This document shows, piece by piece, positions 743-23,609 of a stretch of 64,000 nucleotides of DNA. Position 1 is the stretch's first letter. Each line of letters begins with the position of its first letter. Position numbers and translations under genes: made by a program. The stretch covers positions 812 through 64,811 of IMG/VR virus record IMGVR_UViG_3300045454_000117, one strand, 5' to 3'. Source of the DNA: a virus. Lineage: Duplodnaviria > Caudoviricetes. Under the pieces are notes generated by a model. The model had not been told where the DNA came from. It ran no database searches and saw nothing but the letters and a program-made list of their open reading frames with translations.

Positions 743-756
743 CTCCTTGGTAGGGA
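743..756 (-). promoter_or_regulatory. TCCCTACCAAGGAG RBS-hairpin motif, copy A
   Basis: Exact 14-mer also at 21682 and 23519; precedes a 19-codon ORF (ATG at 733). Confidence 0.6.
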
Positions 757-779
757 TCGTCGCGTTTCCTTGACCCGTT

Positions 780-811
780 AACTCTAGTTCATCGCCGACC
801 GGGTCAAAGCA
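780..811 (-). promoter_or_regulatory. Conserved promoter-like motif TGCTTT-N19-TAGAGT, copy 1
   Basis: Gap-free alignment with 21701-21732 and 26885-26916. Confidence 0.6.
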
Positions 812-840
812 GAAAGCGCAGTTTTCTGCGGTTTTTTGCG

Positions 841-1044
841 TCACAGCACCGGCTCCACGATAGCGACGATGCCAGAGGTGCAGCGCAGTTGCTCAAGGGC
901 TGCGTCGAGCGCGGCGCCAGCGGTGGGTTCGGGCCGATGCAAGCGTGGGCCGGTCGGGCTGAGTGACCACGAAAACGCCCCGTCCCTATGGGGCCAGAGA
1001 TGGACGCGCGGGCGACCGTCGGCGCGATCGAGGGCGCGCGTCAT
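841..1044 (-). CDS. Hypothetical phage protein
   Basis: Translationally coupled ORF in the early-left operon. Confidence 0.55.
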   Translation of the reverse strand: MTRALDRADGRPRVHLWPHRDGAFSWSLSPTGPRLHRPEPTAGAALDAALEQLRCTSGIVAIVEPVL

Positions 1045-1661
1045 GCCGCGATCCGATCGATGTTGCCGTGCTGGACGCTGAAGGTCAGCACCAGCACCTC
1101 GGGGTTATCCTCCCAGCGCTGGCCCTCCTTGTCGTGTAGCGATTCCCACAGCCAGCGGTAGGCCGTCGCTCCCGACCCGATGATCGACGTGACGATCATC
1201 CGGCGCATTTCGTCGGAGCAGCTCTCCCCGAACGCCGTGCGCCCAGCATCCTCGACGGCCTGGCAGACGCCCTCGGCCCAAGCATCATCTTCGCTGATCG
1301 CCTGCAAAGGCTCCGTGCGAACACCTTCGACGACGAGAGTCAGGCGAGACGCCCAGCGCGGCATGTGGATTGAGGGCCGCCCAGGCTTGCATTGCTCCGG
1401 GCGCGCGAGGCTCCCGTCGCGGCCCGCCGGGCGAACATGGTCGTCGGCAAGATAGCGAATGCTCCAAAGCTCGGGGTCGATCTCGCGCGGCTTCTGGTTT
1501 TCCGTCGCCCAGAACGACGCCCATGCTTCCCTGACATAGAGCCGATCGCCAATCGCACACCGTGCCAGCGGTGATGTCGCCAGCCGCCGAGTCTGGGTCT
1601 TGCGCCCGGCGAGCAGCGCGCGCACCATCGGCGCGGAAAAGATGATGGGACGATCAGTCAT
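1041..1661 (-). CDS. ASCH/PUA-like phage protein
   Basis: PIIFSAPMVRALLAGRKTQTRR...GDRLYVRE...PSIHMPRWASR...NPEV motifs. Confidence 0.75.
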   Translation of the reverse strand: MTDRPIIFSAPMVRALLAGRKTQTRRLATSPLARCAIGDRLYVREAWASFWATENQKPREIDPELWSIRYLADDHVRPAGRDGSLARPEQCKPGRPSIHMPRWASRLTLVVEGVRTEPLQAISEDDAWAEGVCQAVEDAGRTAFGESCSDEMRRMIVTSIIGSGATAYRWLWESLHDKEGQRWEDNPEVLVLTFSVQHGNIDRIAA

Positions 1662-1818
1662 AGTCTAGGTCCCCGTCAGCAGCGCACTCGCCGTCGCACC
1701 CATCGAGCCCGCAGTTGAAGCAGGCGTCGTCGTGGCAAGACTCCTCAGGGCAGTGATCGCAGCCGCACTTGTCGAACGTGTCGAGCGCGCAGCAGAAGAA
1801 GCCGCAGGCGTTACACAT
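1654..1818 (-). CDS. 54-aa Cys/Asp-rich putative metal-binding protein
   Basis: MCNACGFFCC...; 12 Cys; overlaps both neighbours by 8 nt. Confidence 0.6.
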   Translation of the reverse strand: MCNACGFFCCALDTFDKCGCDHCPEESCHDDACFNCGLDGCDGECAADGDLDYD

Positions 1819-2836
1819 CGGCCGGCATCCCGTCGTGCTGGACGCCATCGAGCAGGCGACCGGCGGCTTTCTTGCCAAGCCGCTCCATGCGTTCGCCAAC
1901 CGGCGGATCTGCGGGATAGCGCGGGTCGCCATGCCCGGTTGTTTTGATCGGCCCCCACTCCCCCCACTGCTTGAAGAAGAACGAGACGCCCGCCGCGGTG
2001 CACTGGTTACGCAGCCCGCGCGCCCAGTCCGGGTGCATCGGACGCGCTCCGGGGCCGCTCTCGCCGCCCGCGATGACCCAGCTGATATCGCCGATGAGTC
2101 CGGTCCAGTCGCACGAACTGCAGCACTCATATTGGCCAGTGGACATATCCATCGACAGCCCATCCCGCGCGTTCGGGCAGATCAGCCATTCTCCCAGATC
2201 GACCGGCCCAAGCAGAGGCTCGCACGACAGGAAGCGCACCGCCGCTGGAGTCCCCAGCAGGTCGGGGATGCGCTCGTCGGCGCGCTGCTGGTCTTCGACC
2301 GACACGCCCAGCCAGACGTTCGGGAGGGGCAGCTGGACTGCGAGCCATTCGTCGACCGAGCTATCGCCGGTGCGATCGTGCCAGATCTTCTGCGCCATCC
2401 CCTCGACCAGAGCGGAACGAAACCCTTCCAGGCGTTCGCCATCTCCGTTGTCGATCGACTCCATATAGCGCCGCATCCGATCGGCGCGCTTGGTCAGAAT
2501 TTGGTGCTGGTGGTGTGGGGTCAGCGCGCACACCGCGAAAACCATATCGACCCACTCGTCCGGCACGTTCTCGTGGAACAGGTCGCCATGCGCGTTCCAG
2601 AAGATCTTGCGCGGGCGCTTCCATGCGAGCGGCTGGAGCAGCGCGCTTTCGTTGAGGCGCACCTCGCCGGTCCAGACCATGCCGCCAGCGGTCTTCCGGG
2701 TCAGCCCTTGTCGCACCGGGAACCGATGCGCCTGCTTCATGGCGTAGCAGTGCTTGCAGCCTGGCGAGATCACCGAGCAGCCGTTCACCGCGTTGACTGT
2801 GGCGTCGGTCCATTCGATCTTGGTGCCGTCAGCCAT
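1811..2836 (-). CDS. Phage Gp37/Gp68 (DUF5131) family protein
   Basis: TKIEWTDATVN..GCSVISPGCKHCYA, DLFHE, QILTKR, FLSCEPLLG, WVIAGGESG, FFFKQWG. Confidence 0.92.
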   Translation of the reverse strand: MADGTKIEWTDATVNAVNGCSVISPGCKHCYAMKQAHRFPVRQGLTRKTAGGMVWTGEVRLNESALLQPLAWKRPRKIFWNAHGDLFHENVPDEWVDMVFAVCALTPHHQHQILTKRADRMRRYMESIDNGDGERLEGFRSALVEGMAQKIWHDRTGDSSVDEWLAVQLPLPNVWLGVSVEDQQRADERIPDLLGTPAAVRFLSCEPLLGPVDLGEWLICPNARDGLSMDMSTGQYECCSSCDWTGLIGDISWVIAGGESGPGARPMHPDWARGLRNQCTAAGVSFFFKQWGEWGPIKTTGHGDPRYPADPPVGERMERLGKKAAGRLLDGVQHDGMPADV

Positions 2837-3347
2837 GCGCCCGCTCCCGCTGGAGGTGCCGCCGCGGTTCGATCTGCCATGTCGCCTGGCGGATCAGCTC
2901 GGCGGCCTCGCGAAGCATCACCTCGGCGTCGGGGTGCAACCGCTGGGTCGCCAGCGTCTCGATGACGCCGGAAATCTCGGCGGAGCTATTGTAGAGGCGA
3001 TCCGCCGAGCGCGCGGCGGCTGCGCTCTGCTCCGGTGTGGTGCCCGGCTCCGGGTCGCTATACGTCGCGCGTTGCGCTTCCTCGGGCTGCTCGTTGCGCT
3101 GATAGGAGCGCATCGCCCAGGCGACCTCCTCGGCCGCGCTCGCCTTTTTCAGATGCTTCGCGGCGATCTCAGGGTTCGTCTCCGCGCGGCCGGCGGCCCG
3201 TGCCTGCTCCGCCCAGAACAAAACTGTGCTGGGTCCGAACGGGTCGCCGCCCTGAACCGTGAACAGCGGCTCGCCCGGCTTGGCGGACTGCAGCCCATCA
3301 TAGATGCCGGCGCGCTCGCGCGTGCTGACCAATGCGTCGTCCGTCAT
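2829..3347 (-). CDS. Hypothetical phage protein
   Basis: Coupled ORF with a PGEPLFTVQGGD motif. Confidence 0.65.
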   Translation of the reverse strand: MTDDALVSTRERAGIYDGLQSAKPGEPLFTVQGGDPFGPSTVLFWAEQARAAGRAETNPEIAAKHLKKASAAEEVAWAMRSYQRNEQPEEAQRATYSDPEPGTTPEQSAAAARSADRLYNSSAEISGVIETLATQRLHPDAEVMLREAAELIRQATWQIEPRRHLQRERAHG

Positions 3348-5050
3348 GCGTTCTCTCCCGGGAACAGCCAGTCCGCCGCGCGCAGCATCCCGGCGCTCGG
3401 ATATTCGATGATTTCGAGGGTTTTCAGGGTGCCGCGGTAGCGCTTGAAGGTGCCGCCGCTCGCTTCGTGCCCTGCCCAGCGTCCGACCTCATCTGCAGCG
3501 ATCGCGCGCGGATAGGCGGTCAGGATCGGGTCGAGCAGCTTCACGAGCGGCGCGTCCAAGTTCTCGCGCACCGCAGCATGAAGCGCGGCGATCGTCGGCG
3601 GCGCATCCGGCCCCTGGGCGATTTTGCGACCCTCGTCAGTCAGCGCCAGGCGTCCGTCACCCGGATAAGAAATCAGGCCTCGCGTGCGCGCGTCGCCCCG
3701 GTACCGCTTGAACGTCCCGCCCGTGGGCGCATAGTCGGCGATGAACCCGACTTGGTTGGAGGTCGGAGCTTCCAGACCGAAGGCGTTCCACCACGCCACC
3801 GCGTTGAGCAGCTTCATGATCGGGGCAGAGACTGGCCCCACTGAGATGTGCCCGCCGCGCGTGGCTTGGGAGGGGGCGCGCGCGGCGGGCTGCGGCCGAG
3901 CATCAACAGGGGGGGATTGCTCGGCCGGTTCGGATGGGATGGAAATCTGCGGAGGTGCGTCGTCGAGCGCGGGACGGATCCGCGCCATGTCTGCGGCGGC
4001 TTCGACGATGCGCGCGGCGCAATCGCGCAGGGCGCGGCCTTCCGCGATCAGAGCGTCGAGTTGGCGCTGCCCTTTGGCGCGCTCGATCGTCCAGTGATCG
4101 CGCTCGCGCCGGAGGTCGACCAGCTCGGCGCGCTCCGCGTCAGTGATCGGCGCGATCGCCGCAGATCCGCCAGAAGGGATCGCCGCGCCCTCAGCGGCGT
4201 CGGTCGGTGCAGCGGTGAGCCCGGCGAGGATCTCGCGCAGCGCCTCCGGTGCGGGTGGCGTCGGCACCTTCGCCTGGCCAGCGTGGACCGGGGTGGTCTC
4301 GACGTCGGCGACCCGGAACAGCGTCGGCTCTCGCGTCAGCGCCTCGCCCATCGCATAGAATTGGCGCTTCTCGATTCCGCGCAGTCGATCGCGGCCCTCC
4401 TTCGCGGTGAACCCGAGCTGCTCCGCCATCGTGTTGCGATCGACGGCTTGGCCGACGCGGCCCAGCATCCAGTTGTTGACCATGCCGCGAACGCCGGGGT
4501 CGATCTCGGTGAACTTGGTCCCGGCGATGACGGCGGTGAAGCCGCGCTTGCGGCCCTGGAATAGCAGCGCGCGGATGCCCTCGGTGGCCTCGGTCGTGCC
4601 GACGCGCGGGGCAAACCGCTGCACCTCGTCGACCACCACTAGCACGGGGTGCCACAGATCGCGCGGAGCATTGACCAGCGCCGTCAGGAAACGGCCGACG
4701 AACTCCGGCGCACCGTCCGGGCCGAGGTCGTTGAGCTGGGCGATCAGCGAGAAGCCGTGTGTCAGCGCGCCGAGCGCGAGCGATTCCGCGCTGGCCAGCG
4801 GAGCCGGGATATCACCGCCCTCCCCGCCCGCGATCACGAATTCGTGGCGCTCGCGCAGGGTGTAGAACTCGTCCTCACCGTCGAGGATGATCTGCTGGAC
4901 CCGGCCAGCCGTCGTTTCGAGCAGCCGCCGCAACAGCCCGCTCTTGCCGCCGCCGCTATTGGCAACGACGCCGAGGTGCGAGCCGATCAGCTCGTCGAGG
5001 TTGAGGTCGACGGACGCACCGTCTGCGGTCTGGCCGAGCGAAGTCGTCAT
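3344..5050 (-). CDS. HerA/FtsK-like P-loop ATPase with two C-terminal wHTH-like repeats
   Basis: Walker A ANSGGGKS, ILDGEDEF, Walker B VVVDEVQRFAP, GRKRG; repeated GGTFKRYRG. Confidence 0.85.
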   Translation of the reverse strand: MTTSLGQTADGASVDLNLDELIGSHLGVVANSGGGKSGLLRRLLETTAGRVQQIILDGEDEFYTLRERHEFVIAGGEGGDIPAPLASAESLALGALTHGFSLIAQLNDLGPDGAPEFVGRFLTALVNAPRDLWHPVLVVVDEVQRFAPRVGTTEATEGIRALLFQGRKRGFTAVIAGTKFTEIDPGVRGMVNNWMLGRVGQAVDRNTMAEQLGFTAKEGRDRLRGIEKRQFYAMGEALTREPTLFRVADVETTPVHAGQAKVPTPPAPEALREILAGLTAAPTDAAEGAAIPSGGSAAIAPITDAERAELVDLRRERDHWTIERAKGQRQLDALIAEGRALRDCAARIVEAAADMARIRPALDDAPPQISIPSEPAEQSPPVDARPQPAARAPSQATRGGHISVGPVSAPIMKLLNAVAWWNAFGLEAPTSNQVGFIADYAPTGGTFKRYRGDARTRGLISYPGDGRLALTDEGRKIAQGPDAPPTIAALHAAVRENLDAPLVKLLDPILTAYPRAIAADEVGRWAGHEASGGTFKRYRGTLKTLEIIEYPSAGMLRAADWLFPGENA

Positions 5051-5214
5051 CGGGTAATCCAATCGAGGAGGCGGCGGAGGTGGCTGCGCTGCCCGCGCGT
5101 GCGCAGCCACTGCTCCCGACGCGCCTCGTCCCGGGCCAGCATCACGGTCTTGCGATCCGCGAGGGACTGGCTCGAGACGCACGGCGGGGCGTTGAGGAGC
5201 GTCGGGTCGGACAT
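5047..5214 (-). CDS. Small hypothetical protein (55 aa, not in track)
   Basis: Fills the gap exactly with start/stop overlaps on both sides. Confidence 0.4.
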   Translation of the reverse strand: MSDPTLLNAPPCVSSQSLADRKTVMLARDEARREQWLRTRGQRSHLRRLLDWITR

Positions 5215-5399
5215 CACGCGGCCATCAGCCGATGGACGTCACCGTTCTTGTCGGTGGCATAGATGCCGGGGACGCCGTTGAACGTGCGCGGCTCGATAAC
5301 GTCGATGCCGACGATCTTGGCATCCTTGCCCTGCTCGTCCTTGCCGTTGATCGTTATCCGTCCGCCGGCGCGGCGGGCTTTCCAGCTGGTCAGGTGCAT
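5214..5399 (-). CDS. Hypothetical protein
   Basis: GAGGAG RBS before MHLTSWKARRAGG. Confidence 0.6.
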   Translation of the reverse strand: MHLTSWKARRAGGRITINGKDEQGKDAKIVGIDVIEPRTFNGVPGIYATDKNGDVHRLMAA

Positions 5400-5475
5400 C
5401 GAGATTACTCCTCTGATCCGGGCAACTGCGCCCATCCTCGGGGCGGGCGCGCGCGGCACCCGCCCTCTGGGGGAC

Positions 5476-6699
5476 TCAGTTGGCAGCGGCCTTTCCGGGC
5501 GGGGTCTTGAGGCGGGCCTTGTGCTCGGCGATCGCGTCGTCGACGGTCTTGGCGAGGTCATCGCCCAGCCCTTCGCGATGGGTCTTGAGGTCGCTCTCGA
5601 CCGCGAGGACGTCGCCGACGATCTGCGCGTTGCGGCACCGTTCGATCATCTGTGCGGCGACGCTCTCGGCAAGCGAGCCGCCGCCGTCACTCTCGCTCGA
5701 TGCCTCCGGGGCAGCGGGCGATTCCTCGGCGAGCGCGCCGTTCCCGTCTGCCTGGCGGAACGCCTCCTGATCGAGGGTGCGCTGGACCTCTTCCGAAATC
5801 TCGCCGGTCGCCGGGTCGTGTGGCGGATCACCGGCACCGACTTCCTCGCGGGACGGCGGGACCAGGCGCGGGGCGCCGGGTTCCTCGGCGAGAGCCGCGC
5901 TGACGGACCGGGCGGCGATTTCCTCGTCGCGGGCCTCGACGTCGATCAGGTCGCCCGACATCGGGAGCGTCTTGCTGTGACGACGCATGACGGTCTTGCG
6001 CGCCATCTCGCTAAACCACTCGACCCACGGCCCCTTCGGCTCGATCAGCTTCCCCTTGTTGGCGCCAAACTCATAGACGCGGCCCTCGGCGCCGGTCTGG
6101 CTCCGCTGGCGCACCTTGTTGATTTCGGAGCGGCGCATGACTTCGAACGACCGGGTGCCGTCCTTCATGACCGCGACCGAATAGGCGGCGACGATCTCGC
6201 TGTCGGCGGTCTGTTCCTCGGTCAGCTCGAGCATCGGTCGGTGCCGCAGCACCGCTTCGGTACCGGCTTCATAAATGAAGCGACCGCTCTCCATTTCGGC
6301 GCGATAGACCACGTTCGTCTCGATCGAGCTGATCTCGCCGGACTGGAGGATCTTCTTCCGCAGCCCGTACACCATCGGCATGTACTGGACCTGCTTCACG
6401 CTGACCCAGTTATTGCCGTCCTTTACGCGGGTGGAGAAGATCACCAGCGCGGCCTCGCGCTTGTCAGGCAGAAGGCCGTCCTGCGCCGCCTTCATGCAGG
6501 CGAGCAGCAGGCTCTGGCGATCGGCCTTGAGCAACTCGACGTCGCCTTGAACGGCGGTGATGATCGTCCGCTGGAACTGCGCCGGGGTGATGTGCTGGGG
6601 CAGCACCATCTTGAACTGGTCGGCGCGGGTCGCGAGCTGGTTGTTGAAGGATTCGACGGCGCGGCGCGCTTCGTCGACATTGGCAATCTGGGTCGCCAT
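5476..6699 (-). CDS. recT: RecT family single-strand annealing recombinase
   Basis: SLLLACMKAAQDGLLPD..EAALV, QYMPMVYGL, PWVEWFSEMARKTVMRR..K.LP. Confidence 0.92.
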   Translation of the reverse strand: MATQIANVDEARRAVESFNNQLATRADQFKMVLPQHITPAQFQRTIITAVQGDVELLKADRQSLLLACMKAAQDGLLPDKREAALVIFSTRVKDGNNWVSVKQVQYMPMVYGLRKKILQSGEISSIETNVVYRAEMESGRFIYEAGTEAVLRHRPMLELTEEQTADSEIVAAYSVAVMKDGTRSFEVMRRSEINKVRQRSQTGAEGRVYEFGANKGKLIEPKGPWVEWFSEMARKTVMRRHSKTLPMSGDLIDVEARDEEIAARSVSAALAEEPGAPRLVPPSREEVGAGDPPHDPATGEISEEVQRTLDQEAFRQADGNGALAEESPAAPEASSESDGGGSLAESVAAQMIERCRNAQIVGDVLAVESDLKTHREGLGDDLAKTVDDAIAEHKARLKTPPGKAAAN

Positions 6700-6702
6700 T
6701 TC

Positions 6703-6963
6703 TTAGTTCTCCAGTTGGAAGGGCTCGGCCGCGCCATCGGCGACGGCCTCATCATCGACCCGGCCGAGGATCGGCTTGGTCTGGAAGGGCGGCACCTCGT
6801 CGGTCACGCTGACACATTCGACGCGCTTCCAGCCGTCGCCGCGGCGGGCGTCATCGACCTTGAGCATGTCGCCAGCGGCCACCGGCTCGCCGTCGTTGTG
6901 ATAGGTGTAGGTGCGGGTGTCCTCCGGTCGGAACCGGACGACGACAAACTGTCGCTTCGTCAT
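6703..6963 (-). CDS. Hypothetical phage protein
   Basis: GAGGAG RBS; RTYTYH..GD motif. Confidence 0.6.
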   Translation of the reverse strand: MTKRQFVVVRFRPEDTRTYTYHNDGEPVAAGDMLKVDDARRGDGWKRVECVSVTDEVPPFQTKPILGRVDDEAVADGAAEPFQLEN

Positions 6964-6974
6964 GGGCAAGCTCC

Positions 6975-7370
6975 TCAAAATGGTAGGCATTCCACGCACT
7001 CCCAAATGTCGTGCGCAGGGTCGTTACGATGCGGGCACGGGTTACCGGCCGCAGCACTGCTGTGGACGAAAGCGGGGAGAGGCGTTTCCGGGCCAGCCAA
7101 AGCAATCGGCGGCAGGACCGCGCGTACCGAAGCTGGGAGCTGCCACTCCTCTTTGGGCGACCTTTCCGCCGCCACGTCTGCGGAGCACGGCGTGAACTGG
7201 TAGATCGAGCTTCCGCCAATCAGGACTGCCTTGAGCAGCTCGCCGTTGAACAGCGGCTCGATGCTCATCAGCTTGGTGCCGAAGCGCTCGACCTCCTCGA
7301 CGCGACCTATGATTGTGCGGTGGCCCAGGATTTCGACGATGGCGTAATCGCCCTCGGGCAGCGCACTCAT
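6975..7370 (-). CDS. Hypothetical phage protein
   Basis: YAIVEILGHR..GRVEEVERFG motif; coupled ORF. Confidence 0.65.
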   Translation of the reverse strand: MSALPEGDYAIVEILGHRTIIGRVEEVERFGTKLMSIEPLFNGELLKAVLIGGSSIYQFTPCSADVAAERSPKEEWQLPASVRAVLPPIALAGPETPLPAFVHSSAAAGNPCPHRNDPAHDIWECVECLPF

Positions 7371-7714
7371 CAGTCGATCCTCGCCACGCGGTAGGACTCG
7401 TCCGGCTGAACAACAGCGATCCAGGCACCGTCGAAAAACAGGATGCGCTCGTCGCGGAGCTTCGCCTGCGCGATCAGCTGGCGGGCTGGATCGCCCGGAT
7501 AGGTCAGGGTGCCGGCCTCGACGTCGAGCCGAAAACCGTTGGTGTCGCGCCAGCCGCCGCCGATATCGCGATAGGCGGCGTCGATCTGCTCGACCGCACC
7601 GACAGGGATTGAGGGACAGAGCATGTCCGGGATGGTGCCCAGCATTTCGCGGGCACCATATCCGCGCCGCTCCATGTGGGCCCGGGCGATCGGGGTGAAG
7701 GTGAACTCGACCAT
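7370..7714 (-). CDS. Hypothetical phage protein
   Basis: Coupled ORF; LTYPGDP motif. Confidence 0.6.
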   Translation of the reverse strand: MVEFTFTPIARAHMERRGYGAREMLGTIPDMLCPSIPVGAVEQIDAAYRDIGGGWRDTNGFRLDVEAGTLTYPGDPARQLIAQAKLRDERILFFDGAWIAVVQPDESYRVARID

Positions 7715-8526: not shown

Positions 8527-8537
8527 GTCGGGCTCCT

Positions 8538-9620: not shown

Positions 9621-9662
9621 GCGATAATTGCGATAGTCGCAATACTAAATCGCGATTATCGC
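9621..9662 (-). promoter_or_regulatory. Left operator cluster (OL/PL-like)
   Basis: GCGATAATTGC 9621, GCGATAGTCGC 9630, GCGATTATCGC 9652; same palindrome as the cI-cro gap. Confidence 0.8.
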
Positions 9663-9680
9663 AATTTTTCCGCGATCCGG

Positions 9681-10076: not shown

Positions 10077-10079
10077 CGG

Positions 10080-10742
10080 TCAAAGCTCGCGCGCGAGCCT
10101 GAACACGCGCCCGAAGATGCGCAGGTCTTCGGCGTCAATTTCCTGATCGGGAACCGCGGGATTGTCTGAGATCACGAGCACGCGCTGGGGGCCGATCGCC
10201 CGCAACCGCTTGATCGCCCCTGCCCCGTACATGGAAATTGCCCAGACTCGGTCATTGAGATTGAGCATGGTGGAGGTCGTATCGATCATGACCTCGTCGC
10301 TGCTCTGCAGCGTCGGAAACATGCTGTCCCCGATCCCGCGCGCCAACCTGATACGATGCGGCGGCGTCCGGGTGATCGCACGAAGATAGCCGAGGTCGAA
10401 CTTGACCGGCTCCTCCTCGATATAGTCGTCGATGTTGGTGCCATCGCCCATCGCGAGTGACAGGTCGAGCCGGATCAGCTCGACCACATCATCCGCGCCA
10501 GACCCGCCTATCGCGGGGAGCACCTCAGCCGGCCGCACATCGCTGCGGCGGTGCGTCCGCTCCGCTTGTTCCACCCAAGCCAGCGCGAGGCCGCGTTCTT
10601 CACCACGCCACTGTCTGATGCCTCTGCGGATTTTCGAAAGCTTGTCGGCGCTGAGATCGATGCCGACCGCCAGTTCCTTCTGGTCGATCTTCAACCGATC
10701 CAGGCGCAGGAATATCTCGTCGAGGCGGTCGGAGTTGGCCAT
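10080..10742 (-). CDS. CI-like repressor (HTH plus S24 autopeptidase)
   Basis: N-terminal HTH; GDSMFPTL catalytic Ser, IKRL Lys, LVISDN; divergent from cro. Confidence 0.93.
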   Translation of the reverse strand: MANSDRLDEIFLRLDRLKIDQKELAVGIDLSADKLSKIRRGIRQWRGEERGLALAWVEQAERTHRRSDVRPAEVLPAIGGSGADDVVELIRLDLSLAMGDGTNIDDYIEEEPVKFDLGYLRAITRTPPHRIRLARGIGDSMFPTLQSSDEVMIDTTSTMLNLNDRVWAISMYGAGAIKRLRAIGPQRVLVISDNPAVPDQEIDAEDLRIFGRVFRLAREL

Positions 10743-10763
10743 CCGCCCATAGGACCGAACGTG

Positions 10764-10823
10764 ACGATAATCGCAATCGCGATTATCGCTATTTGTCGCT
10801 TGCGATTCCATCGCGATTATCGC
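10764..10823. promoter_or_regulatory. Right operator cluster (OR-like)
   Basis: ACGATAATCGC 10764, GCGATTATCGC 10779 and 10813, between divergent cI and cro. Confidence 0.85.
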
Positions 10824-10835
10824 ATTTAACATCGC

Positions 10836-16512: not shown

Positions 16513-16712
16513 GCGGGCGCGGGGGCAATCCTTTCCCGACTGGCCTGAACTTCGGCGGGGCCGCTGCTGCCCGGCTGGAACGCGCGCTGGCTCAGGTCGC
16601 GCGCGAGAATGCGCGCCGCGTCCCCTGCCCTGTCGCGGGCTGTGCGCTGACCATCCTGCCCGAGAACCTCCGGCACCACCTCGACACCGTTCACGGGGAA
16701 GACGATGACTGA
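16509..16712 (+). CDS. Small C2H2-type zinc-finger protein
   Basis: CPVAGC...LRHHLDTVH. Confidence 0.5.
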   Translation: MSGRGGNPFPTGLNFGGAAAARLERALAQVARENARRVPCPVAGCALTILPENLRHHLDTVHGEDDD

Positions 16713-17805
16713 CCTGCTACCCGCCCCGCTGACCCCGGCGAACTGCGACCTCAGCGACTTCCCTCGCATGATGATCGATATCCCGCGTCTCAGGCAGTCC
16801 GGGTTCGATGCCATCATTGACGACAGCGCCTGGCGCGCCGGGCTCAACCTCTGGATGTCGGCGTGGCATTCGGTCCCGGCCGGATCGCTCGACGCCGACG
16901 ACGCCGCCTTGACGAAGGCGGCCGGGCTGGGCCGCGACCTCCGTACATGGGCGGCCGTCCGGGACAATGCGCTGCGCGGGTTCGTGCTGTGCTCGGATGG
17001 GCGCTTCTATCACGAGACCGTCTGCGAGGTCGCATTGGAGGCATGGATCGAGAAGCTGATCCAGCGCCTCGCCAGTGGAGCCGGCAACGCCAAGCGGTGG
17101 AAGGCCGAGTTCGATCCCGCACCGCTCGAAGCTGACCTGTTCCGTGCCGGCGAACTGCTGGCCGCGCTCAATCCGGACTCTAAGGTTCTGGTGAAGGCGC
17201 GTCGCCGATCATCCCAGTCGGATGAAAATTCTATCCCACCGGGACGCGGCACCGATCCGACCGGATCAAATGCGCGATCCGACCGCGATCCGACCGGACA
17301 GGAAAGACGATCCGACCGGACAGCGCCTCCCCGGGGAGAATCGTCCCAAGAGAAGGGAAGGGAAGGGAATAGTAATAACCCCCCTACCCCCCAGGCTGAT
17401 GCCGATCCCCGCCTCGCACGATTAATGAAGGCCGGAGGGTTCATCACCGTGCCCAGCGATTGGCGACCGGTCCTCGAAAGCTGGCTCGCCCGCGGTGCCG
17501 ACTTCGAGACCGACATCATCCCAGTCTTGGAGCAGGCCGGTCCGCGTCTCCGCGAGCGCACCAACCGGGCACCGTACAAGCTGAAGGTTTTCGAGCCCGA
17601 TCTGGCCCAGCACATCGCCACGGTCCGGGGCGACATCGAGCGCCTCCGTGAAATCCCCGGACGCCAGGCCGAGCTCGAGCGGGCGCAGCGGGAGGCCGAC
17701 GCGGCCCGCGAGAGCGAGGAGCAGGAGGCCGAACGCCAGCGCCAGATGCGGGCGTACCTCGCCGCTGCGAAAGCCCCCGACGCCGCCGCAGAGGGAGAGG
17801 GCTGA
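16705..17805 (+). CDS. DUF1376/YdaU-like replication initiator
   Basis: PAPLTPANCDL.DFP.M, SAWH.VPAGSL..DD, DGRFYH; internal iterons. Confidence 0.8.
   Translation: MTDLLPAPLTPANCDLSDFPRMMIDIPRLRQSGFDAIIDDSAWRAGLNLWMSAWHSVPAGSLDADDAALTKAAGLGRDLRTWAAVRDNALRGFVLCSDGRFYHETVCEVALEAWIEKLIQRLASGAGNAKRWKAEFDPAPLEADLFRAGELLAALNPDSKVLVKARRRSSQSDENSIPPGRGTDPTGSNARSDRDPTGQERRSDRTAPPRGESSQEKGREGNSNNPPTPQADADPRLARLMKAGGFITVPSDWRPVLESWLARGADFETDIIPVLEQAGPRLRERTNRAPYKLKVFEPDLAQHIATVRGDIERLREIPGRQAELERAQREADAARESEEQEAERQRQMRAYLAAAKAPDAAAEGEG
17210..17319 (+). repeat. Iterons (GATCCGACCGG) of a putative phage origin
   Basis: Copies at 17210 and 17232 (degenerate), 17254, 17276, 17287, 17309. Confidence 0.75.
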
Positions 17806-18020
17806 TGGCCGCGATCCGCACCTCGCTGTCCCGCATCGCGGCTCAGGCCCGTGACCCCGATCCCGAGGCGGCATGGGAGGCTGCCCGCGCAGCATGGCAG
17901 CTCCACGGCCTCGCCCTGCTCAATCCCGACGAGGTCGAACGCAAGCTCGGCTGGGTCGCCGGGCAGGAAGCCAAGCTCATCGCCGAGAAGTGCTTCGGCA
18001 AAAGGAAGACCGAGAAATGA
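17805..18020 (+). CDS. Hypothetical protein
   Basis: Coupled ORF. Confidence 0.55.
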   Translation: MAAIRTSLSRIAAQARDPDPEAAWEAARAAWQLHGLALLNPDEVERKLGWVAGQEAKLIAEKCFGKRKTEK

Positions 18021-18673
18021 CCGGGGGCGACGACATCCGCGCGCTGAAGAAACGATTCGGTCCCGCCATGCGTGCCGCCGAAGCCGAGGCTCGCGCCGCG
18101 CTTGAGGCGAAATGGAGCCACAAGCAGGGTGCGCCGGAGACGCTCGAACGGATCGATCGAGTTCCGGAGCATCGGCGCCAGTCCCCTCTCTCGCGCATGG
18201 CGAAGCTGGGGAAGATCGATGCCGAGGATCTCGCGGCCGCCGAGGAGATCGCCAGCGTCGTCGAGATGATCGAGCGGTCCGTTTCGGTCCGCAGCGGGTC
18301 GCTGGAGGCTCGCGTCGATTGTTCGGGGTCGGCGCGGGACCAGCTCGTCGAATCGCTGGGTCGTATCAGGCTCGAGGTCGCCTATCGCGCCTGGCGCAAC
18401 AGCATCCCCAACCCGAAGCGCCTGATCATCGACATGGTGCTGACCAACACCCCGTATGTCCGCCTCGCCAAGGAGCATGGGCTGCACTGGCGCACCGCCC
18501 GCAAGCGCCTGATCTCGGCCCTGCGGATGTGGCCCAGCTTCAAGCTGTTGGCCCGGCACACCGTCAAGCGCGACGACGTCGAGGACGCCTATGCGCGGCT
18601 CGGTGAGGGGACATTGCTGGCCCCGCGCCCGAAGGCACCCCCGCCCTCCCTCGCCGAGGAGGGTTCGGAGTGA
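18017..18673 (+). CDS. Putative late-gene regulator (C-terminal HTH)
   Basis: YVRLAKEHGLHWRTARKRLISAL HTH; Q-like position. Confidence 0.5.
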   Translation: MTGGDDIRALKKRFGPAMRAAEAEARAALEAKWSHKQGAPETLERIDRVPEHRRQSPLSRMAKLGKIDAEDLAAAEEIASVVEMIERSVSVRSGSLEARVDCSGSARDQLVESLGRIRLEVAYRAWRNSIPNPKRLIIDMVLTNTPYVRLAKEHGLHWRTARKRLISALRMWPSFKLLARHTVKRDDVEDAYARLGEGTLLAPRPKAPPPSLAEEGSE

Positions 18674-18758
18674 TGCCGGCCCCGATGTCCCCCGCCGTCG
18701 CCTGCGCGTCGGCTCAATGTCGTCCCGGGGCAATCGCCCCGGTCATTGGAGAGGAAGC

Positions 18759-19382
18759 ATGACGCAGCCACTGGATTTCGCGGCGATCGCCGCGCGCGCC
18801 AACGCGAATGGGATCATGGTCACCGCCTGCGGAGTGAAGGAGATCGCGGGGATGCTCGCGCCGCAGAGCATGCCGCAGGCCCATGATGCGCTGCGGGAAG
18901 CGGTTCAGTATATCGAGCGCTATGGGCTGATGCCCGCCGAAAAGCGCCGCGCGGCCCGCGCCGAACTCGATGCGCTCGCCACCGACGTCCCCGCCGCTCC
19001 ACAGCCCTCCAAATGGCGGGACAAGATCGCATCGATCGTCGCTCGCGCCTATGGCGGCTCGCTCTACCCAGGATTTGGCGTTCCCGGCGACTATCCGGTT
19101 GAGGACGTCGATTACCGGGCGGCGGATGCCATCGGCGAATATCTCGCGATAGTTCGGCAAGCGGTACCCCCGCACTCTATCGCTGCGATCGCGGCCGCCT
19201 GGCAGCGCGTGGTCAATGCTCTGAACGATGTGCCCGGTGGGATGCACGCCGAACTGGAAGACGCAGCATCATCCTTCGACGAATTGGCCGAATCCTTGCT
19301 CGCTCCAGCCCCGCCCGAGGCGGCGATGAGCACCGGGTATCGCTGCCTCGACAGCCGCTCGCTGAACGGAGATGCCCAATGA
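18759..19382 (+). CDS. Hypothetical protein
   Basis: GAGGA RBS, open frame. Confidence 0.55.
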   Translation: MTQPLDFAAIAARANANGIMVTACGVKEIAGMLAPQSMPQAHDALREAVQYIERYGLMPAEKRRAARAELDALATDVPAAPQPSKWRDKIASIVARAYGGSLYPGFGVPGDYPVEDVDYRAADAIGEYLAIVRQAVPPHSIAAIAAAWQRVVNALNDVPGGMHAELEDAASSFDELAESLLAPAPPEAAMSTGYRCLDSRSLNGDAQ

Positions 19383-19636
19383 CCCGCCAGATCACCGCCA
19401 TTTACGGCGTCGAGCCCGGCCGCGAGGCCGAATATCCGATCGCGCACGCCGTCGGTTCGGAAAGCCACATTGCCGGGCGCGGCAAGGTCAAGGTCGAGTG
19501 GATCGAGCGTCGCCACGAGAATTATGGCGACCACGGTCTCGACTGGTTCGACGTTCTGTCCGCCGGCATCGTGGTCGCGTCGGTCCAGGCGCGCGCGGTC
19601 GCCGAGATCCACTATGGGCCAGAGGTGCCAGCGTGA
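19379..19636 (+). CDS. Hypothetical protein
   Basis: Coupled ORF. Confidence 0.6.
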   Translation: MTRQITAIYGVEPGREAEYPIAHAVGSESHIAGRGKVKVEWIERRHENYGDHGLDWFDVLSAGIVVASVQARAVAEIHYGPEVPA

Positions 19637-19863
19637 CCGCGCCCCGCTCCAGCGAGCAGCTGCTCGACCAGTACCGACGCCACCGCTCCAACCTGCACTC
19701 GTGGCAGACCCTCTACCCCTATGCGATGGGACGGGTCGAAAGTGCCCTCACCGCTCCCGGTCTTAGCGCGCAGGGCAGGATCAAAGAGGCGCTGTTGCAG
19801 ATCGCCGCGCTCGATATCGTCAGCGCGGAGCCGCTGCCCGAGCCTGAAAGCGAACCGGCATGA
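19633..19863 (+). CDS. Hypothetical protein
   Basis: Coupled ORF. Confidence 0.5.
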   Translation: MTAPRSSEQLLDQYRRHRSNLHSWQTLYPYAMGRVESALTAPGLSAQGRIKEALLQIAALDIVSAEPLPEPESEPA

Positions 19864-20201
19864 ACCGCGGCGGCCTCTGCGACGTCTGCATCGATCCCGG
19901 CCACTGTTGCCGTTCGGTGTTTCTCACTGGTGGCGACATCGGTGACCCGACAGCTGACATAGCCGCACCCATGTCATTCGAGCGCGCAGAGCATCTCGCT
20001 TTGCGATACCACCTGCCCTTCCGTCCAAACGAGCAGCGGTCCGATGGCCGGTGGAATTGGTGGTGCACAGCCCTTGGAGAAAACGGCCGCTGCACGATCT
20101 ACGAAGCTCGTCCACAGCTGTGCAGGTCTTATGCGGCGGGTTCTGATCCGCTATGCGTCCACCATCTCCCGAGGGAGGAAGATCATGCCCCGCCTGCTTA
20201 A
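19860..20201 (+). CDS. YkgJ-family Zn/Fe-chelating protein
   Basis: CDVC..PGHCC...CTAL...GRCTIYEARPQLCRSY. Confidence 0.85.
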   Translation: MNRGGLCDVCIDPGHCCRSVFLTGGDIGDPTADIAAPMSFERAEHLALRYHLPFRPNEQRSDGRWNWWCTALGENGRCTIYEARPQLCRSYAAGSDPLCVHHLPREEDHAPPA

Positions 20202-20435
20202 CCGCGACCAGGACCGCGCGCGCCGCGCCGCAAGGCTGGAATGGGCCGGGATACGCTCCGGCGATCGCCGAAAGATGAAACGCGCGAAGCGGTTGCGGCG
20301 TCAGGTCTTCTGCTCGCAGATGGCGAGCCTCCACGAATCGCTGCGCCGCTTTGCCGTCGATATCGGGCCATCCGTCCGTGCCTTTAGCGATGCGATGTCG
20401 AAATTGCAGCGCGGTTTCCAACAGATGGCCGTTGC

Positions 20436-20630
20436 TCAGAGCAAGGGTGCGCAGCGCAGCCCCAACTCCAGCCTGCGCTCGACGATCTCGTAAAACCGTC
20501 TGTTCGGTAGCTGGACGGGCCAAGCCTCGGAGACCACGCCCAACCGGGTCATGTCTTCGAGCTTGGCGTCCTCTTCCGGCGTCCATGGGAGCGGGGTCGG
20601 CCGCTGCTTCCATGCCTTCGGTTCTCTCAC
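20436..20630 (-). CDS. Small Myb/HTH-like protein
   Basis: PWTPEEDAKL...LPNR....I..R...LGL. Confidence 0.55.
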   Translation of the reverse strand: MREPKAWKQRPTPLPWTPEEDAKLEDMTRLGVVSEAWPVQLPNRRFYEIVERRLELGLRCAPLL

Positions 20631-21508
20631 GCCGCCAGCTCCGCCTGCACCGCCGCGACCCTGAATGCGGTCTCCATCCGATGCAGGTCCTTCTGCATCA
20701 CCGCAAGGATTTCGGCGATCGTTTCAGCGCGGCCGGGATCGACCTTCCGCACCGCGGTCACCACGTTGTCATCGATGCCGGCGCGGAGGAACGCCGCGAT
20801 GTTGTCGAGCCGCGCCTCGAATCCGCGCGCCGCGCTGATCTCTGCGACCGTTGGCGGCGGCGGTGTCTCGGCATCCCCGAACATTGAGGTCTGCGCCTCG
20901 GCCTCGGCGATCGCCTGGGCGATATCGCGAAGGGCCGTGACGGTCCGGCACCGCCCCGCATTGATCTGGCGCAGCAGCTTCCCCTGCCCCGCCTCGGACA
21001 GCCCGGCGAGGTAATAGGCCTGGGTCTGATAGAGCTGACCGCGCTCGAGCAGGTGCTGGCATTCCTCGGTGAGATTGAGCAACCGGAGCCGCTCCGTGAT
21101 CCGTACCAGCGGCTTGCCCAGCTTCACCGCCAGCGTCTCCGGCGTGTACTCGAACTCCGCGATCATGCGCTGATAGGACCGCGCCTGCTCCATCAGCGTG
21201 ACGTCGACTCGCTGGTCGTTCTCGATGATGGCGTCGATCGCGAGCTGTGCGTCATCCACCTTCGCGAGGTTGCATGCGATCTCCGTCGCCCCGCCCTGCT
21301 CGGCGAGCAGCTGACAGGCGCGGAACCGTCGCTCGCCGGCGACGATCATGTAGCGCCCATCCTTTTCTTTTCGGACCGTGATGGGCTGCAGCAGCCCGTT
21401 CTCGCGGATCGACGCCGCGAGGTGCCGCAGCTCCTCCTCGTCGAAGATCTTGCGGGGCTGATCGGGGTTACCGAAGATGCGATCGAGGGCGATGCGCTTC
21501 GTCATCAC
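20627..21508 (-). CDS. ParB/RepB/Spo0J family protein
   Basis: NPDQPRKIFD..L..LAASIRENGLLQPITVR, IVAGERRFRA, IIENDQR, HTH. Confidence 0.92.
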   Translation of the reverse strand: MMTKRIALDRIFGNPDQPRKIFDEEELRHLAASIRENGLLQPITVRKEKDGRYMIVAGERRFRACQLLAEQGGATEIACNLAKVDDAQLAIDAIIENDQRVDVTLMEQARSYQRMIAEFEYTPETLAVKLGKPLVRITERLRLLNLTEECQHLLERGQLYQTQAYYLAGLSEAGQGKLLRQINAGRCRTVTALRDIAQAIAEAEAQTSMFGDAETPPPPTVAEISAARGFEARLDNIAAFLRAGIDDNVVTAVRKVDPGRAETIAEILAVMQKDLHRMETAFRVAAVQAELAA

Positions 21509-21672
21509 AACACCTCCGCGCCGACGCGCTCAACGATCGCATCGGCGATCTCGGGGCCGAAGTTCTCAACGATCCATGCGCTTAGGCTATCATCGCGGTC
21601 GCGCGCGCAGCACTCGCTGGGAAGATCGTCCACCTGGTCAAAGAACTGGTGGATGCCATGGTCAATCATCAT
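21505..21672 (-). CDS. Small acidic hypothetical protein
   Basis: AAGGAG RBS inside hairpin motif; coupled to parB. Confidence 0.5.
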   Translation of the reverse strand: MMIDHGIHQFFDQVDDLPSECCARDRDDSLSAWIVENFGPEIADAIVERVGAEVL

Positions 21673-21674
21673 GG

Positions 21675-21732
21675 GTTCGGACTCCTTGGTAGGGAGCCCG
21701 AACTCTATGACACCGGCGACCGGCGTAAAGCA
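21675..21732 (-). promoter_or_regulatory. Promoter-like motif copy 2 abutting RBS hairpin copy B (11-bp stem)
   Basis: TGCTTTACGCCGGTCG...TAGAGTT followed by GTTCGGGCTCC-CTACCAA-GGAGTCCGAAC. Confidence 0.65.
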
Positions 21733-21748
21733 CAATCGCCACTCTAAG

Positions 21749-21934
21749 TTACTGCTTCTGCACCTTTTTCTTGCGCGGTGCGCGCTTCTTTTTCGGGGGT
21801 GGTGACGGCTTCGGTTCGTTCCAGCCGAACCGCTCGAAATCGCGATCAGCGAGCCTTCCGACATCGGCGATCTGCTCATCGACCTTGTCCTGGGGCAGCG
21901 GGAAATCAGATGTGGGCGGGGGTTCCTTGGACAT
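21749..21934 (-). CDS. Small protein with basic C-terminus
   Basis: Preceded by hairpin copy C (21943-21957); FGW..PKP..KKKRAPRKKK. Confidence 0.55.
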   Translation of the reverse strand: MSKEPPPTSDFPLPQDKVDEQIADVGRLADRDFERFGWNEPKPSPPPKKKRAPRKKKVQKQ

Positions 21935-21970
21935 CAGGGTGGCTCCGTTGGTAGGGAATGGTCGCGGGCA

Positions 21971-23512
21971 TCACCGGTAGTTCCTGACGTCCAGGATCAC
22001 GGTGTTGACGTTCGTGCCTGCGAGGGCGAACGACTTCTCGGGCAGGTCAATCCATCGGGCATTGCCGCGGCCCAGCCGAGTGAGTTCATCATGCAGCGCC
22101 TTGTGGCGAGCATCGGTTGCGTGTTCAGCCCTGGCGGACATCACCGCGACGAGCCGGCCTCCGGGCTTGAGGAATTTGAGCGCGTGGCGGACATGGTCGC
22201 AGTCGCGGCCACGATCGAAGGGCGGGTTCATGATGACGAAATCGAACAGCCCGCCGAGGTCGCTGGGCTGCATCGCGAGGAAGTCGCCCTCGCGCGTATG
22301 GTAGCCGCTGGTCCGCAGCAGCGCGGCCAGGTGCGGCTGGATCTCGACGCAGGTGACATCGTGGCCCTTGGCCCGCGCGGCCGCCGCGAGCGCGCCGGTT
22401 CCCGCGCTTGGTTCGAGGACACGGCTCGGGCGCCACTCGTCCCATGCGCGCCCGGCACAATCGGCCCGGCCCTGTAGCTCCGCTCGCGCGATCACCTGCG
22501 CGACCACCGGCTCCGGCGACGGGAAGAAGCCGTAATGCTTCGCTGGGGTCGAATGGTAGAGCGGTCCGGCATCGTACCCCGGGGCGCTCTCATCGACATC
22601 ACCCTCGACGGGCCGGTAGTATTCGAGCAGCAGCTCGTTGACCTCAGCGAGCAGGTCCTTGCGCGTGAACCAGAGGTGGATGTTGCCGTTCTTGAAGACG
22701 TCGATCTTGAAATAGTCCTCCTCGAAGCGGTGCGGCCGCGCGCCGGGCGAGATCGCGATGCGCTCCGAGATCTGCTGCGCGCGGGGCAGCGTCCCCTTCC
22801 CGTCCAGCTCGCGGAAGATGCGCTCGACGTCCGCGAGGGCATCGCGTTTGCCTCGGTCGTGATACGACCAACTCGCATAGTCGATTGCCAGCGCGTTCGA
22901 GAAAATCAGGCGGTTTCCGATCGCGAAGGCGTCGTGGGAACGGAAGCGCCGGTCCATCTGCATGAACACGTTGGCGATTCCGCGCAGATACATCTCGCGG
23001 CGGTTCGCCCAGACAGTGGAGAATGTCGCGTTCGCGTTCTCCACAGTGAACGCCGGCGGTGTGTCGCGGATGCTCTCGTGGAACTCGGCCCGCGCCTGGC
23101 TGTCGAGCAAGGTGTCGAACCCGAGATGATCCATCAGGTGGGACCAGCACCGGCGATCGATCGAGGCGGTCAGGAGCTTCTCGAATTCGTCGCGGGCGTC
23201 ATAGGTGACTTGGCGACGCTGCCCCTGATCCCATCGCTGCCCCTGCCCTGTAGTCAGGAATGCCCGGGTGAATGAGTTATCGGAGTAGCGATCGTCCTGC
23301 GGGATCGATAGCGAGAGGTTGCCCGCGATGCAGGTCGCGCCAGCCGCCGCCGTCGTGGCGTGGAAGCTGTCATAGGCTTTGAGCCACATCGCGATCGCGC
23401 GGTCGCGTCCGTCGGTGAAGTCCTTGATATTCGCCAGCGTGGCGAGCGCCTGGTCAGGAGGGCGCGTGGAATCGGGGTCGGGAGGCGTGATGCCCCCTGT
23501 CACGTAGTTCAT
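21971..23512 (-). CDS. DUF4942 domain plus N6-adenine-type DNA methyltransferase
   Basis: FKIDVFKNGNIHLWF (DUF4942), FFPSP, VLEPSAGTG, CVEI, IMNPPF. Confidence 0.88.
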   Translation of the reverse strand: MNYVTGGITPPDPDSTRPPDQALATLANIKDFTDGRDRAIAMWLKAYDSFHATTAAAGATCIAGNLSLSIPQDDRYSDNSFTRAFLTTGQGQRWDQGQRRQVTYDARDEFEKLLTASIDRRCWSHLMDHLGFDTLLDSQARAEFHESIRDTPPAFTVENANATFSTVWANRREMYLRGIANVFMQMDRRFRSHDAFAIGNRLIFSNALAIDYASWSYHDRGKRDALADVERIFRELDGKGTLPRAQQISERIAISPGARPHRFEEDYFKIDVFKNGNIHLWFTRKDLLAEVNELLLEYYRPVEGDVDESAPGYDAGPLYHSTPAKHYGFFPSPEPVVAQVIARAELQGRADCAGRAWDEWRPSRVLEPSAGTGALAAAARAKGHDVTCVEIQPHLAALLRTSGYHTREGDFLAMQPSDLGGLFDFVIMNPPFDRGRDCDHVRHALKFLKPGGRLVAVMSARAEHATDARHKALHDELTRLGRGNARWIDLPEKSFALAGTNVNTVILDVRNYR

Positions 23513-23518
23513 CGATAG

Positions 23519-23609
23519 CTCCTTGGTAGGGAAAGAAATTTGTGATCGGGCAGTCTTGCGCGGTGCGAACCGTGCGGGCATCAGGCGCAGGTTCCTTGGT
23601 AGGGAACCT
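23519..23609 (-). promoter_or_regulatory. RBS hairpin copies D (23519-23532) and E (23589-23609)
   Basis: TCCCTACCAAGGAG and AGGTTCC-CTACCAA-GGAACCT, each before an in-frame ATG of the methyltransferase. Confidence 0.65.

Follow-up and report, generated by a model that had tools for sequence, protein, structure and literature searches.

The window analysed here is a 64,000-nucleotide (nt) stretch of a Caudoviricetes provirus (bases 812-64811 of IMG/VR provirus record IMGVR_UViG_3300045454_000117; 62-70% G+C in 2-kb windows), and it carries five copies of a short sequence, TCCCTACCAA, which lie directly before Shine-Dalgarno (SD) sites and which we refer to as the tag. The tag is an element of the start-associated type that is widespread and undescribed, represented in the window by a small number of slightly divergent copies. 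We propose that the five copies mark phage mRNAs and are read as RNA, most likely by a small phage-encoded antisense RNA with the reverse complement of the tag (the anti-tag), and we assign a probability of roughly 0.55 to a regulon in which such an RNA pairs with the tags and occludes their SD sites. A first-pass annotation of the same DNA had described the copies as dispersed hairpins that cover SD sites, however, it is the sequence that is conserved and not the hairpin, and the hairpin model is largely rejected.

The tag occurs five times in the window, only on the minus strand and always in gene sense, against a mean of 0.02 in dinucleotide-shuffled sequence (0 of 100 shuffles reached five), and its inner 7-mer CTACCAA has no further occurrence on either strand. 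Read on the minus strand the copies run TCCCTACCAA(C)GGAG(C/T)(C/T), with GGAACC in one copy, and an ATG follows 6-10 nt past the GGAG or GGAA. The five CTACCAA-type copies before an SD and an ATG that the first-pass annotation listed are confirmed by these counts, and so is their distribution, with four in a leftward cassette (20.4-24.3 kb) and one approximately 21 kb off near the integrase. The linkage it drew between the methyltransferase/ParB cassette and the excision operon is borne out by the placement of the tags, which attach one functional class to translation starts. Two of the five tag-linked ATGs open no conserved gene, namely ATG 23581 (3-4 codons) and ATG 733 (19 codons). Two close relatives of the window are available, the viral record G1 and a near-identical prophage in a Sphingomonas sp. 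chromosome (G006) with a 97% identical methyltransferase, and because ATG 23581 opens only 3-4 codons in both of them the methyltransferase most likely starts at 23512. Annotation gains from the tag in that this start is moved to 23512 and the small 55-aa and 61-aa (amino acid) genes are flagged as real.

The tag is a phage feature and not a host ribosome-binding context. The G006 Sphingomonas chromosome contains 13 occurrences of CCCTACCAA, five of them within the prophage, and 17 of the reversed control. Host genomes were searched for the tag followed by 0-3 nt, GGA, 3-14 nt and ATG. Among 301 Sphingomonadaceae genomes a cluster was detected only in G006 (five hits), the others having 0-3 scattered hits at about the control level, many of them in a conserved coding motif, and in the Alsobacter order the sole cluster among 401 genomes is that of the Alsobacter genome itself (seven hits on one contig). 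A common genome-wide host context, which the first-pass annotation had named as one of the findings that would overturn its proposal, is therefore not what is seen, with clusters in one of 301 and one of 401 genomes.

Judged by its core, the window element (…CCAAGGAG) is a local variant of a tag (…CCACGGAG) that is common to many prophages and not peculiar to the window phage. The tag core is CCCUACCA, with UCCCUACCAA as the window form, fused to the SD GGAG. In unrelated alphaproteobacterial prophages the core CCCTACCA is found 11-12 nt before an ATG, in gene sense, at 4-21 sites per genome. The six copies of the phage G2 lie on a single strand, as do the ten of an Alsobacter prophage, and counts over whole records reach 21 in G713, 13 in G714, 11 in G715, 15 in G716 and 4 in G717, compared with 1-4 for the reversed control. 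In the 39.5-kb G713 record TCCCTACCA is the most frequent 9-mer of all, with zero copies past the portal gene. Sampling of the viral database was uneven in its yield. A first IMG/VR scan with TCCCTACCAAGGAG returned 120 loci, of which 100 were single-copy, mostly chance matches in low-GC phages, and only the G1 record was real; a scan with TTCTGTGGTAGGGA gave 109 new loci, 10 with G+C of at least 0.55, the real ones being G2 (already known) and one new lineage (L239, L290). The scan with CCCTACCACGGAGAC supplied G713-G717, and about half of its 30 stretches were single, probably chance matches. Among named phages the only match was a Rhizobium phage methyltransferase, and bases 30000-53608 of that 53608-base genome hold no exact core and 10 one-mismatch matches, which is the shuffle level. 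A literature search on the tag core and on start-associated sequences, with supplementary files outside its reach, found no description of the tag.

Altogether 91 distinct copies were gathered, 67 of them with an SD and a start within reach. The distance from tag to SD is nearly fixed in these 67 start-linked copies: 46 have C as linker, 6 have CA and 8 have A or AC, which is the form of the window, although linker C and the sequence GGAGAC are inflated in this set by the inclusion of L184-L213, which were found by the same CCCTACCACGGAGAC pattern as G713-G717. The SD is GGAG in 49/67 copies, the start codon is ATG in 61/67, and 6-8 nt separate the end of the SD from the start in 48/67. In 36 copies the start lies 11-12 nt past the end of the tag, and T occupies position -1, just before the core, in 41. 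By their predicted products the tagged genes are early or accessory. They encode the DUF4942 methyltransferase, ParB-like, ArdC-N, DUF2786/DUF7168, DUF6011 and Gp157 proteins and a sliding clamp, as well as a pyrophosphohydrolase, a winged-helix protein and an ADP-ribosylglycohydrolase. Homologues of the methyltransferase frequently occur apart from the tag, with no relaxed core at approximately 25 of 31 genome loci and 9 of 13 viral loci and clusters only at L126, L127, L144 and L160.

Five sphingomonad contigs with a 51% identical methyltransferase (L145, L146, L147, L155, L164) carry something else around the homologue, namely 9-mers of the palindrome GGTGGCAGCTGCCACC at 7-18 copies per 21 kb. 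These repeats look like a different, very dense system in what seem to be plasmid or integrative and conjugative element regions.

The candidate anti-tag RNA of the window is a plus-strand unit of two hairpins and a terminator that contains tag 4 in reverse complement (Table 1). Its terminator is the sole terminator-like site in 23300-24400, the T tract is found on the plus strand only, and there is no plus-strand gene upstream for it to end. Across 18500-25500 three terminator-like sites were called, where shuffles average 4.3, and this is the only long one. Folding gives -54.8 kcal/mol (z -4.82) for the 99-nt RNA of the plus strand and -40.5 kcal/mol (z -2.60) for the minus strand, and the block 23505-23654 is nearly invariant in the window, G1 and G006, with substitutions in the coding DNA on either side. 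The hairpin at 23589-23609, which the first-pass annotation had read as a cis-acting SD hairpin like the other four, is more plausibly a part of this opposite-strand RNA. A further anti-tag, unpaired, lies earlier at 23523-23532 and may belong to the candidate only if the RNA starts farther upstream.

Pairing energies were computed from a 23-nt seed (23588-23610), long-sequence duplex folding having given meaningless energies in such G+C-rich DNA. Against the four other tagged leaders the seed scores -29.7 to -32.9 kcal/mol (-32.8 kcal/mol for the predicted duplex with the leader of tag 1), whereas 67 other leaders have a median of -14.1 and score no better than -20.2. The predicted duplexes span 16-20 bp between -28 and -4 relative to the start and cover the GGAG and the two following pyrimidines in all four targets. 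The linker position of this lineage is A in 5/5 tags, with U opposite it in the anti-tag. In the proposed mechanism the anti-tag would form a pairing of 16-20 nt with every tagged leader, starting 1-2 nt ahead of the tag and ending two nt beyond the GGAG. Ribosome binding would thereby be blocked, and the methyltransferase, both mini-genes, ParB and the excision/integration operon would be repressed together. We infer plus-strand transcription, pairing in the cell and an effect that is repression rather than activation or cleavage; the RNA would act either in the lysogen or as an early shut-off. No Rfam family matched the window at its gathering threshold, and five related loci gave no match at their small-RNA-like sites (three unrelated matches lay elsewhere). 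The sole sub-threshold match, to the small-RNA family tfoR, covers exactly 23552-23650 on the plus strand (17 bits against a gathering threshold of 70, E 0.14), but this is a likeness of shape only.

Loci of the same build were found in other lineages, at tag copies that have neither an SD nor an ATG. On the anti-tag strand these have a 5' hairpin and, after it, (U)CUG-UGGUAGGG-A; a second, strong hairpin (-19 to -28 kcal/mol) comes no more than about 12 nt later and is followed by a T-rich tail at nine of ten loci. This build is present in all seven lineages with enough sequence, which are the window with G1 and G006, G2, the Alsobacter prophage, G713, the G714/G716/L184 group, a second G714/G716 locus and L239; the loci include two in G714, L210 and L212 in G716, L184 and L239. 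By comparison, no SD-linked copy of the multi-copy phages (58 by a separate count) appears with a hairpin of -19 kcal/mol or lower ending within 60 nt in a list that has no tally of its own. In G714, L210 and L184 a promoter-like TTGCCT-17-TA(G/C)GTA precedes the 5' hairpin by 7 nt and stands beside palindromes like those upstream of tagged genes. The seed shared by these loci, UCUGUGGUAGGGA, would pair with U-CCCUACCA-C-GG(A), a pairing that may explain why T is conserved at -1 and why the linker is C or CA.

Several points weigh against a small RNA as the reader. The complementarity is partly circular because the candidate was recognized through its tag, and a stand-alone copy in the sense orientation could equally be a decoy or a protein-binding site. 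Within the window, neither scans nor inspection by eye turned up a convincing promoter of the sigma-70 type from which the plus-strand RNA could start. When read on the plus strand, hairpin B has a 9-bp stem and a loop of 3 nt, and the anti-tag would therefore be largely sequestered in the window phage. There are no substitutions in tags or seed among the three close relatives, and so there is no covariation within the lineage. The stricter folds of individual loci were hand-curated, and a simple terminator rule scores 6 of 17 stand-alone and 6 of 58 SD-linked copies, several of the 17 being coding or SD-less start sites. Strand asymmetry was rejected as evidence, since 10/10 loci fold better on the anti-tag strand but so do 52/58 ordinary tags. 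Finally, the lineages share the portal, ParB and the DUF4942 methyltransferase, so that they may have inherited an early module from a common ancestor or may use a protein as reader.

Such a protein reader is the main rival to the anti-tag RNA. A phage or host protein, acting as a translational repressor or activator or as an endoribonuclease in the manner of T4 RegA and RegB, would recognize the tag, stand-alone copies would be binding or decoy sites, and no antisense RNA would exist; we regard this as possible, though well behind the RNA in likelihood. An exact core of 8-9 nt that is conserved across lineages while its flanks are free fits a sequence-specific binder, and the tagged lineages do share proteins. 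All-against-all comparison of six phages showed that only the methyltransferase, ParB-like proteins, a DUF488-like protein, the portal and a few others are common to them, and G713 and G714, although found through the motif alone, carry both the ParB-like protein and the DUF4942 methyltransferase, the catalytic domain of which also matches small RNA/protein methyltransferase models. The lack of an antisense-RNA promoter in the window would likewise be expected under this reading. However, no RNA-binding or ribonuclease domain was recognized among the shared or tagged genes scanned, methyltransferase homologues are common in tag-free elements, and a protein leaves unexplained the opposite-strand terminator and T tract after stand-alone copies. 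The first-pass annotation had suggested an RNA-binding protein or a small RNA, and of these it is the small RNA that now has a concrete candidate locus.

It is improbable that the tag acts as DNA, whether as an oriented operator (stoperator-like, or of the KorB/ParB type of global repression) or as a short homology for cassette exchange. The window and G1 (650-760 compared with L142:15176-15396) are identical through tag 1 and its GGAGC and unrelated beyond, G1 having a 534-aa ParB-like gene where the window has the 19-codon open reading frame (ORF) and the integrase operon. Here the tag therefore coincides with a recombination or cassette junction, although eight bases alone would not suffice for homologous recombination. 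There are also several ParB-like genes, and in several phages -10-like elements are found 6-25 nt ahead of some tags. This promoter distance varies, however, and many copies are intercistronic, some immediately after stop codons, whereas the SD distance is nearly fixed; the tag is thus tied to the SD and not to promoters. The likely immunity operators, moreover, are different sequences. A palindromic repeat of the AATCGCGATTATCGCAAT type occurs five times, at 9626-9670, 10775-10831 and 24346-24368, on either side of the S24-peptidase repressor gene and at the divergent region from which the leftward cassette starts. These palindromes are probably immunity operators, which would place the cassette under repressor control.

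Other prophages have conserved sequences of their own before tagged genes. In the Alsobacter prophage (L160/L176; G311:C8:59.9-79.6 kb) a conserved block, TTGCTTTTTTCTG followed by a TGGTAGATT-like -10, precedes five tagged genes; it may serve them as a common early promoter or operator and recalls the extended form of start-associated sequences. Palindromes of the forms GTAACC-N4-5-GGTTAC and GCAACC-N4-GGCAAC lie upstream of several tagged genes and beside the small-RNA-like locus (L217-L218, that is G714, with L207, L208, L184, L189 and L195), and these are probably repressor operators of this group of phages. At 15.6-18.5 kb of L215 (G713) three tags each follow the same two-hairpin unit, a G+C-rich hairpin and then GGTGGA-N3-TCCACC, which looks like an extended form of the tag.

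The original idea of a cis-acting hairpin at each copy, with a TCC/GGA stem and a CUACCAA loop masking the SD until it is opened, is improbable too, and slightly less credible than a tag that acts as DNA. Stem lengths of 3, 11, 4, 4 and 7 bp in coordinate order were correctly reported, and stable hairpins are predicted at two of the five copies: that of tag 3 (copy 21694) has an 11-bp stem over the GGAG at -23.6 kcal/mol (z -5.65), and the 7-bp stem of copy 23604 lies within the minimum-energy fold of the 99-nt minus-strand stretch given above, the copy not having been folded alone. The other three are structured at the shuffle level (z +0.5 to +0.75). Stems of at least 7 bp occur in 2 of 22 copies from the window, G2 and the Alsobacter prophage, both of them in the window and none among the 17 from the two distant prophages, and the remaining 20 have only 2-5 bp. 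In the 67 start-linked copies the stem extends beyond CC/GG by 1.09 on average, compared with 1.10 ± 0.06 in 2000 shuffles. The T before the core in 41/67 copies would permit a U-A pair, but position -2 is most often A, which is unable to pair with the last G of GGAG. The invariant loop on a variable stem with compensating flanks described in the first-pass annotation is thus not upheld, since long stems are limited to two copies and flank pairing equals that of shuffled sequence. No covariation can be read within the lineage because the close relatives carry both long stems unchanged, and the 67 copies give no sign of a stem kept by compensatory changes. We therefore largely reject an SD-sequestering regulatory hairpin for the tag.

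Tag 3 may nonetheless be structured in a promoter-dependent way. Three promoter-like blocks ending in TAGAGT were noted (Table 1), and the ATG 7 nt downstream of the third suggests a transcription start about 8 nt past TAGAGT; that block, which lies on the minus strand, may drive a leaderless gene antisense to the late region. Applied to tag 3, this spacing would place the transcription start at the tag's first C, within the 5' arm of the hairpin, so that RNA from the local promoter would have no 5' arm of the 11-bp stem and read-through RNA would have it. Loss or retention of an arm by choice of promoter is a logic known from T4 late genes.

Very unlikely, finally, is a self-sufficient translational enhancer that contacts the ribosome by rRNA pairing or mimicry without any trans factor, as the tag does sit at the position of an enhancer and the host 16S rRNA does contain UUGGUGGGG, which is complementary to it with one G-U and whose partner CCCACCAAGG is like the tag at 9/10 positions, but the UUGGUGGGG segment is paired within the 16S rRNA sequence itself, a match of 6-9 nt in 1.5 kb carries little weight, no use of the tag is seen among host genes, and stand-alone copies with terminators are unexplained. 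In the ribosome this segment forms an internal helix. The sequence UUGGUAGGG also spans the tRNA-Ala 5' processing site in both rRNA operons of the G006 host (L181), and we judge this match in the tRNA-Ala leader, like the UUGGUGGGG/CCCACCAAGG resemblance, to be due to chance.

The tags lie within a recognizable prophage layout. The left end of the window holds the integrase, most of which falls in the 811 record bases preceding the window, and the 77-aa ORF. A leftward early operon encodes DUF5131, a HerA-like protein, RecT and HIRAN, the S24-peptidase repressor gene is at 10080-10832, and rightward replication genes include DnaB. The leftward cassette comprises a T5orf172-HTH protein, the DUF4942 methyltransferase, the 61-aa and 55-aa ORFs, ParB and a 64-aa ORF, with the structural genes next. 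Farther on, 54744-58921 (minus strand) encodes a prokaryotic E2 family D protein beside a ParB-like protein, consistent with a PRTRC-type cassette, and this region is free of tags.

Table 1. Tag copies, candidate anti-tag RNA and promoter-like blocks of the window, with the ORFs adjoining tag 1.
Feature	Position	Strand	Remarks
Tag 1 (TCCCTACCAA + GGAG)	743-756 (core 747-756)	-	heads 19-codon ORF, 77-aa ORF and integrase operon
19-codon ORF directly behind tag 1	674-733	-	ATG 733; identical in G006; unrelated ParB-like gene instead in G1
77-aa ORF between tag 1 and integrase	362-595	-	no Pfam match; possible excisionase
Tag 2, extra C before GGAG	21943-21957 (core 21948-21957)	-	intercistronic, 17 nt past methyltransferase stop; heads 61-aa ORF 21749-21934
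Tag 3, inside 11-bp hairpin covering GGAG	21675-21703 (core 21686-21695)	-	heads 55-aa ORF 21505-21672, then ParB 20627-21508
Tag 4	23589-23609 (core 23596-23605)	-	73 nt upstream of tag 5; before in-frame ATG 23581
Tag 5	23519-23532 (core 23523-23532)	-	before ATG 23512 of DUF4942 methyltransferase gene (21971-23512)
Candidate anti-tag small RNA, ~100 nt	23552-23650	+	hairpin A, hairpin B with anti-tag, intrinsic terminator; antisense to methyltransferase leader
Hairpin A	23553-23579	+	5' part of candidate RNA
Hairpin B, carrying UUGGUAGGG	23589-23609	+	AGGUUCC-UUGGUAG-GGAACCU; tag 4 hairpin read on the other strand
Intrinsic terminator, tail TCGTATTTCT	23611-23640	+	13 pairs, 10 G-C; one base past hairpin B
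Promoter-like block TTGACC ... TAGAGT	780-812	-	25 nt upstream of tag 1; paralogous to 21701-21733 block (2 matches, 0.02 expected)
Promoter-like block TTTACG-16-TAGAGT	21701-21733	-	ends 7 nt before tag 3
Third block GCTTTAC ... TAGAGT	~26880-26916		ATG 7 nt later, without Shine-Dalgarno

If the pairing is real, one RNA of approximately 100 nt would co-ordinate the translation of an early-gene class (methyltransferase, ParB, ArdC-like and integration/excision genes) and could act between phages. The presence of a tag at cassette swap points also links regulation to mosaic evolution. A wider and much more tentative proposal is that of a pan-phage RNA addressing system, in which unrelated temperate phages of Alphaproteobacteria would tag their early anti-defence and establishment genes (here together with the excision operon) and each encode an anti-tag small RNA, so that a prophage could silence its own tagged genes and also, in trans, the tagged early genes of incoming phages or other elements. 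Should this be true, RNA-based cross-immunity would explain the conservation of the tag between otherwise unrelated phages.

Among known systems, Cluster A mycobacteriophage stoperators resemble the tag as short asymmetric multi-copy sites that are oriented with transcription and often lie near gene boundaries. They are bound as DNA by the immunity repressor, whose own operator they match. In the window, by contrast, the putative operators of the repressor are palindromes unrelated to the tag, and the tag keeps its place relative to the SD instead of following promoters; a stoperator identity was rejected on the difference between the tag and the palindromes flanking the S24 repressor gene, for which an operator role is itself likely rather than established. 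The RegB/RegA regulation of T4 is also similar to a tag regulon, as a class of early mRNAs is marked at or next to the SD and shut off together. The T4 readers are proteins, RegB being a GGAG-cutting nuclease and RegA a translational repressor. No homologue of either was identified here, in analyses that included no search aimed at one.

The c4 RNA of phages P1 and P7 is an antisense RNA (Citron and Schuster, 1990, cited in PMC8198154). As far as the available part of the latter account goes, c4 is like the candidate in being a small phage antisense RNA that pairs near a ribosome-binding site and blocks phage genes, and it does so within lysis-lysogeny control (PMC8198154). The candidate is unlike c4 in lying on the opposite strand and in that it would serve 4-20 dispersed targets with a common tag that is shared by unrelated phages. 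The action of c4 is on one operon, and it is made from that same operon.

The closest described element is the start-associated sequence (SAS) of Cluster K mycobacteriophages, with its extended form (ESAS), and the tag is of the same kind without being a member. In the portion of the published account available to us, the Cluster K SAS is an asymmetric repeat, 13 bp long, that includes AGGAG; its 11-19 copies lie 3-7 bp ahead of starts, with ATG as the next start in 80 of 93 cases, and it keeps to one orientation and to the non-structural half of the genome, the host being nearly free of it (PMC3203893). It precedes genes of different families, and its function is given there as unknown, with a reader that is possibly RNA or protein (Pope et al., 2011, PMC3203893). 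Both elements are therefore asymmetric repeats with an SD core just before starts, a preference for ATG, a single orientation, an association with non-structural genes and rarity in the host. They differ in sequence (GGGATAGGAGCCC in Cluster K and CCCTACCA-N-GGAG here), in host (Actinobacteria as opposed to Alphaproteobacteria) and in copy number (11-19 as opposed to five in the window and up to 21 in its relatives). Membership of the Cluster K SAS was rejected in that the consensus GGGATAGGAGCCC, as it stands in that part of the account, is not matched and the hosts are Alphaproteobacteria, and the same part names no mirror-image RNA gene (PMC3203893). Start-associated sequences have been unexplained since 2011, and a comparable element is now found in a different bacterial phylum together with a testable partner, a candidate mirror-image small RNA gene. 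If the addressing system is real, it would be a general answer to the purpose of these sequences.

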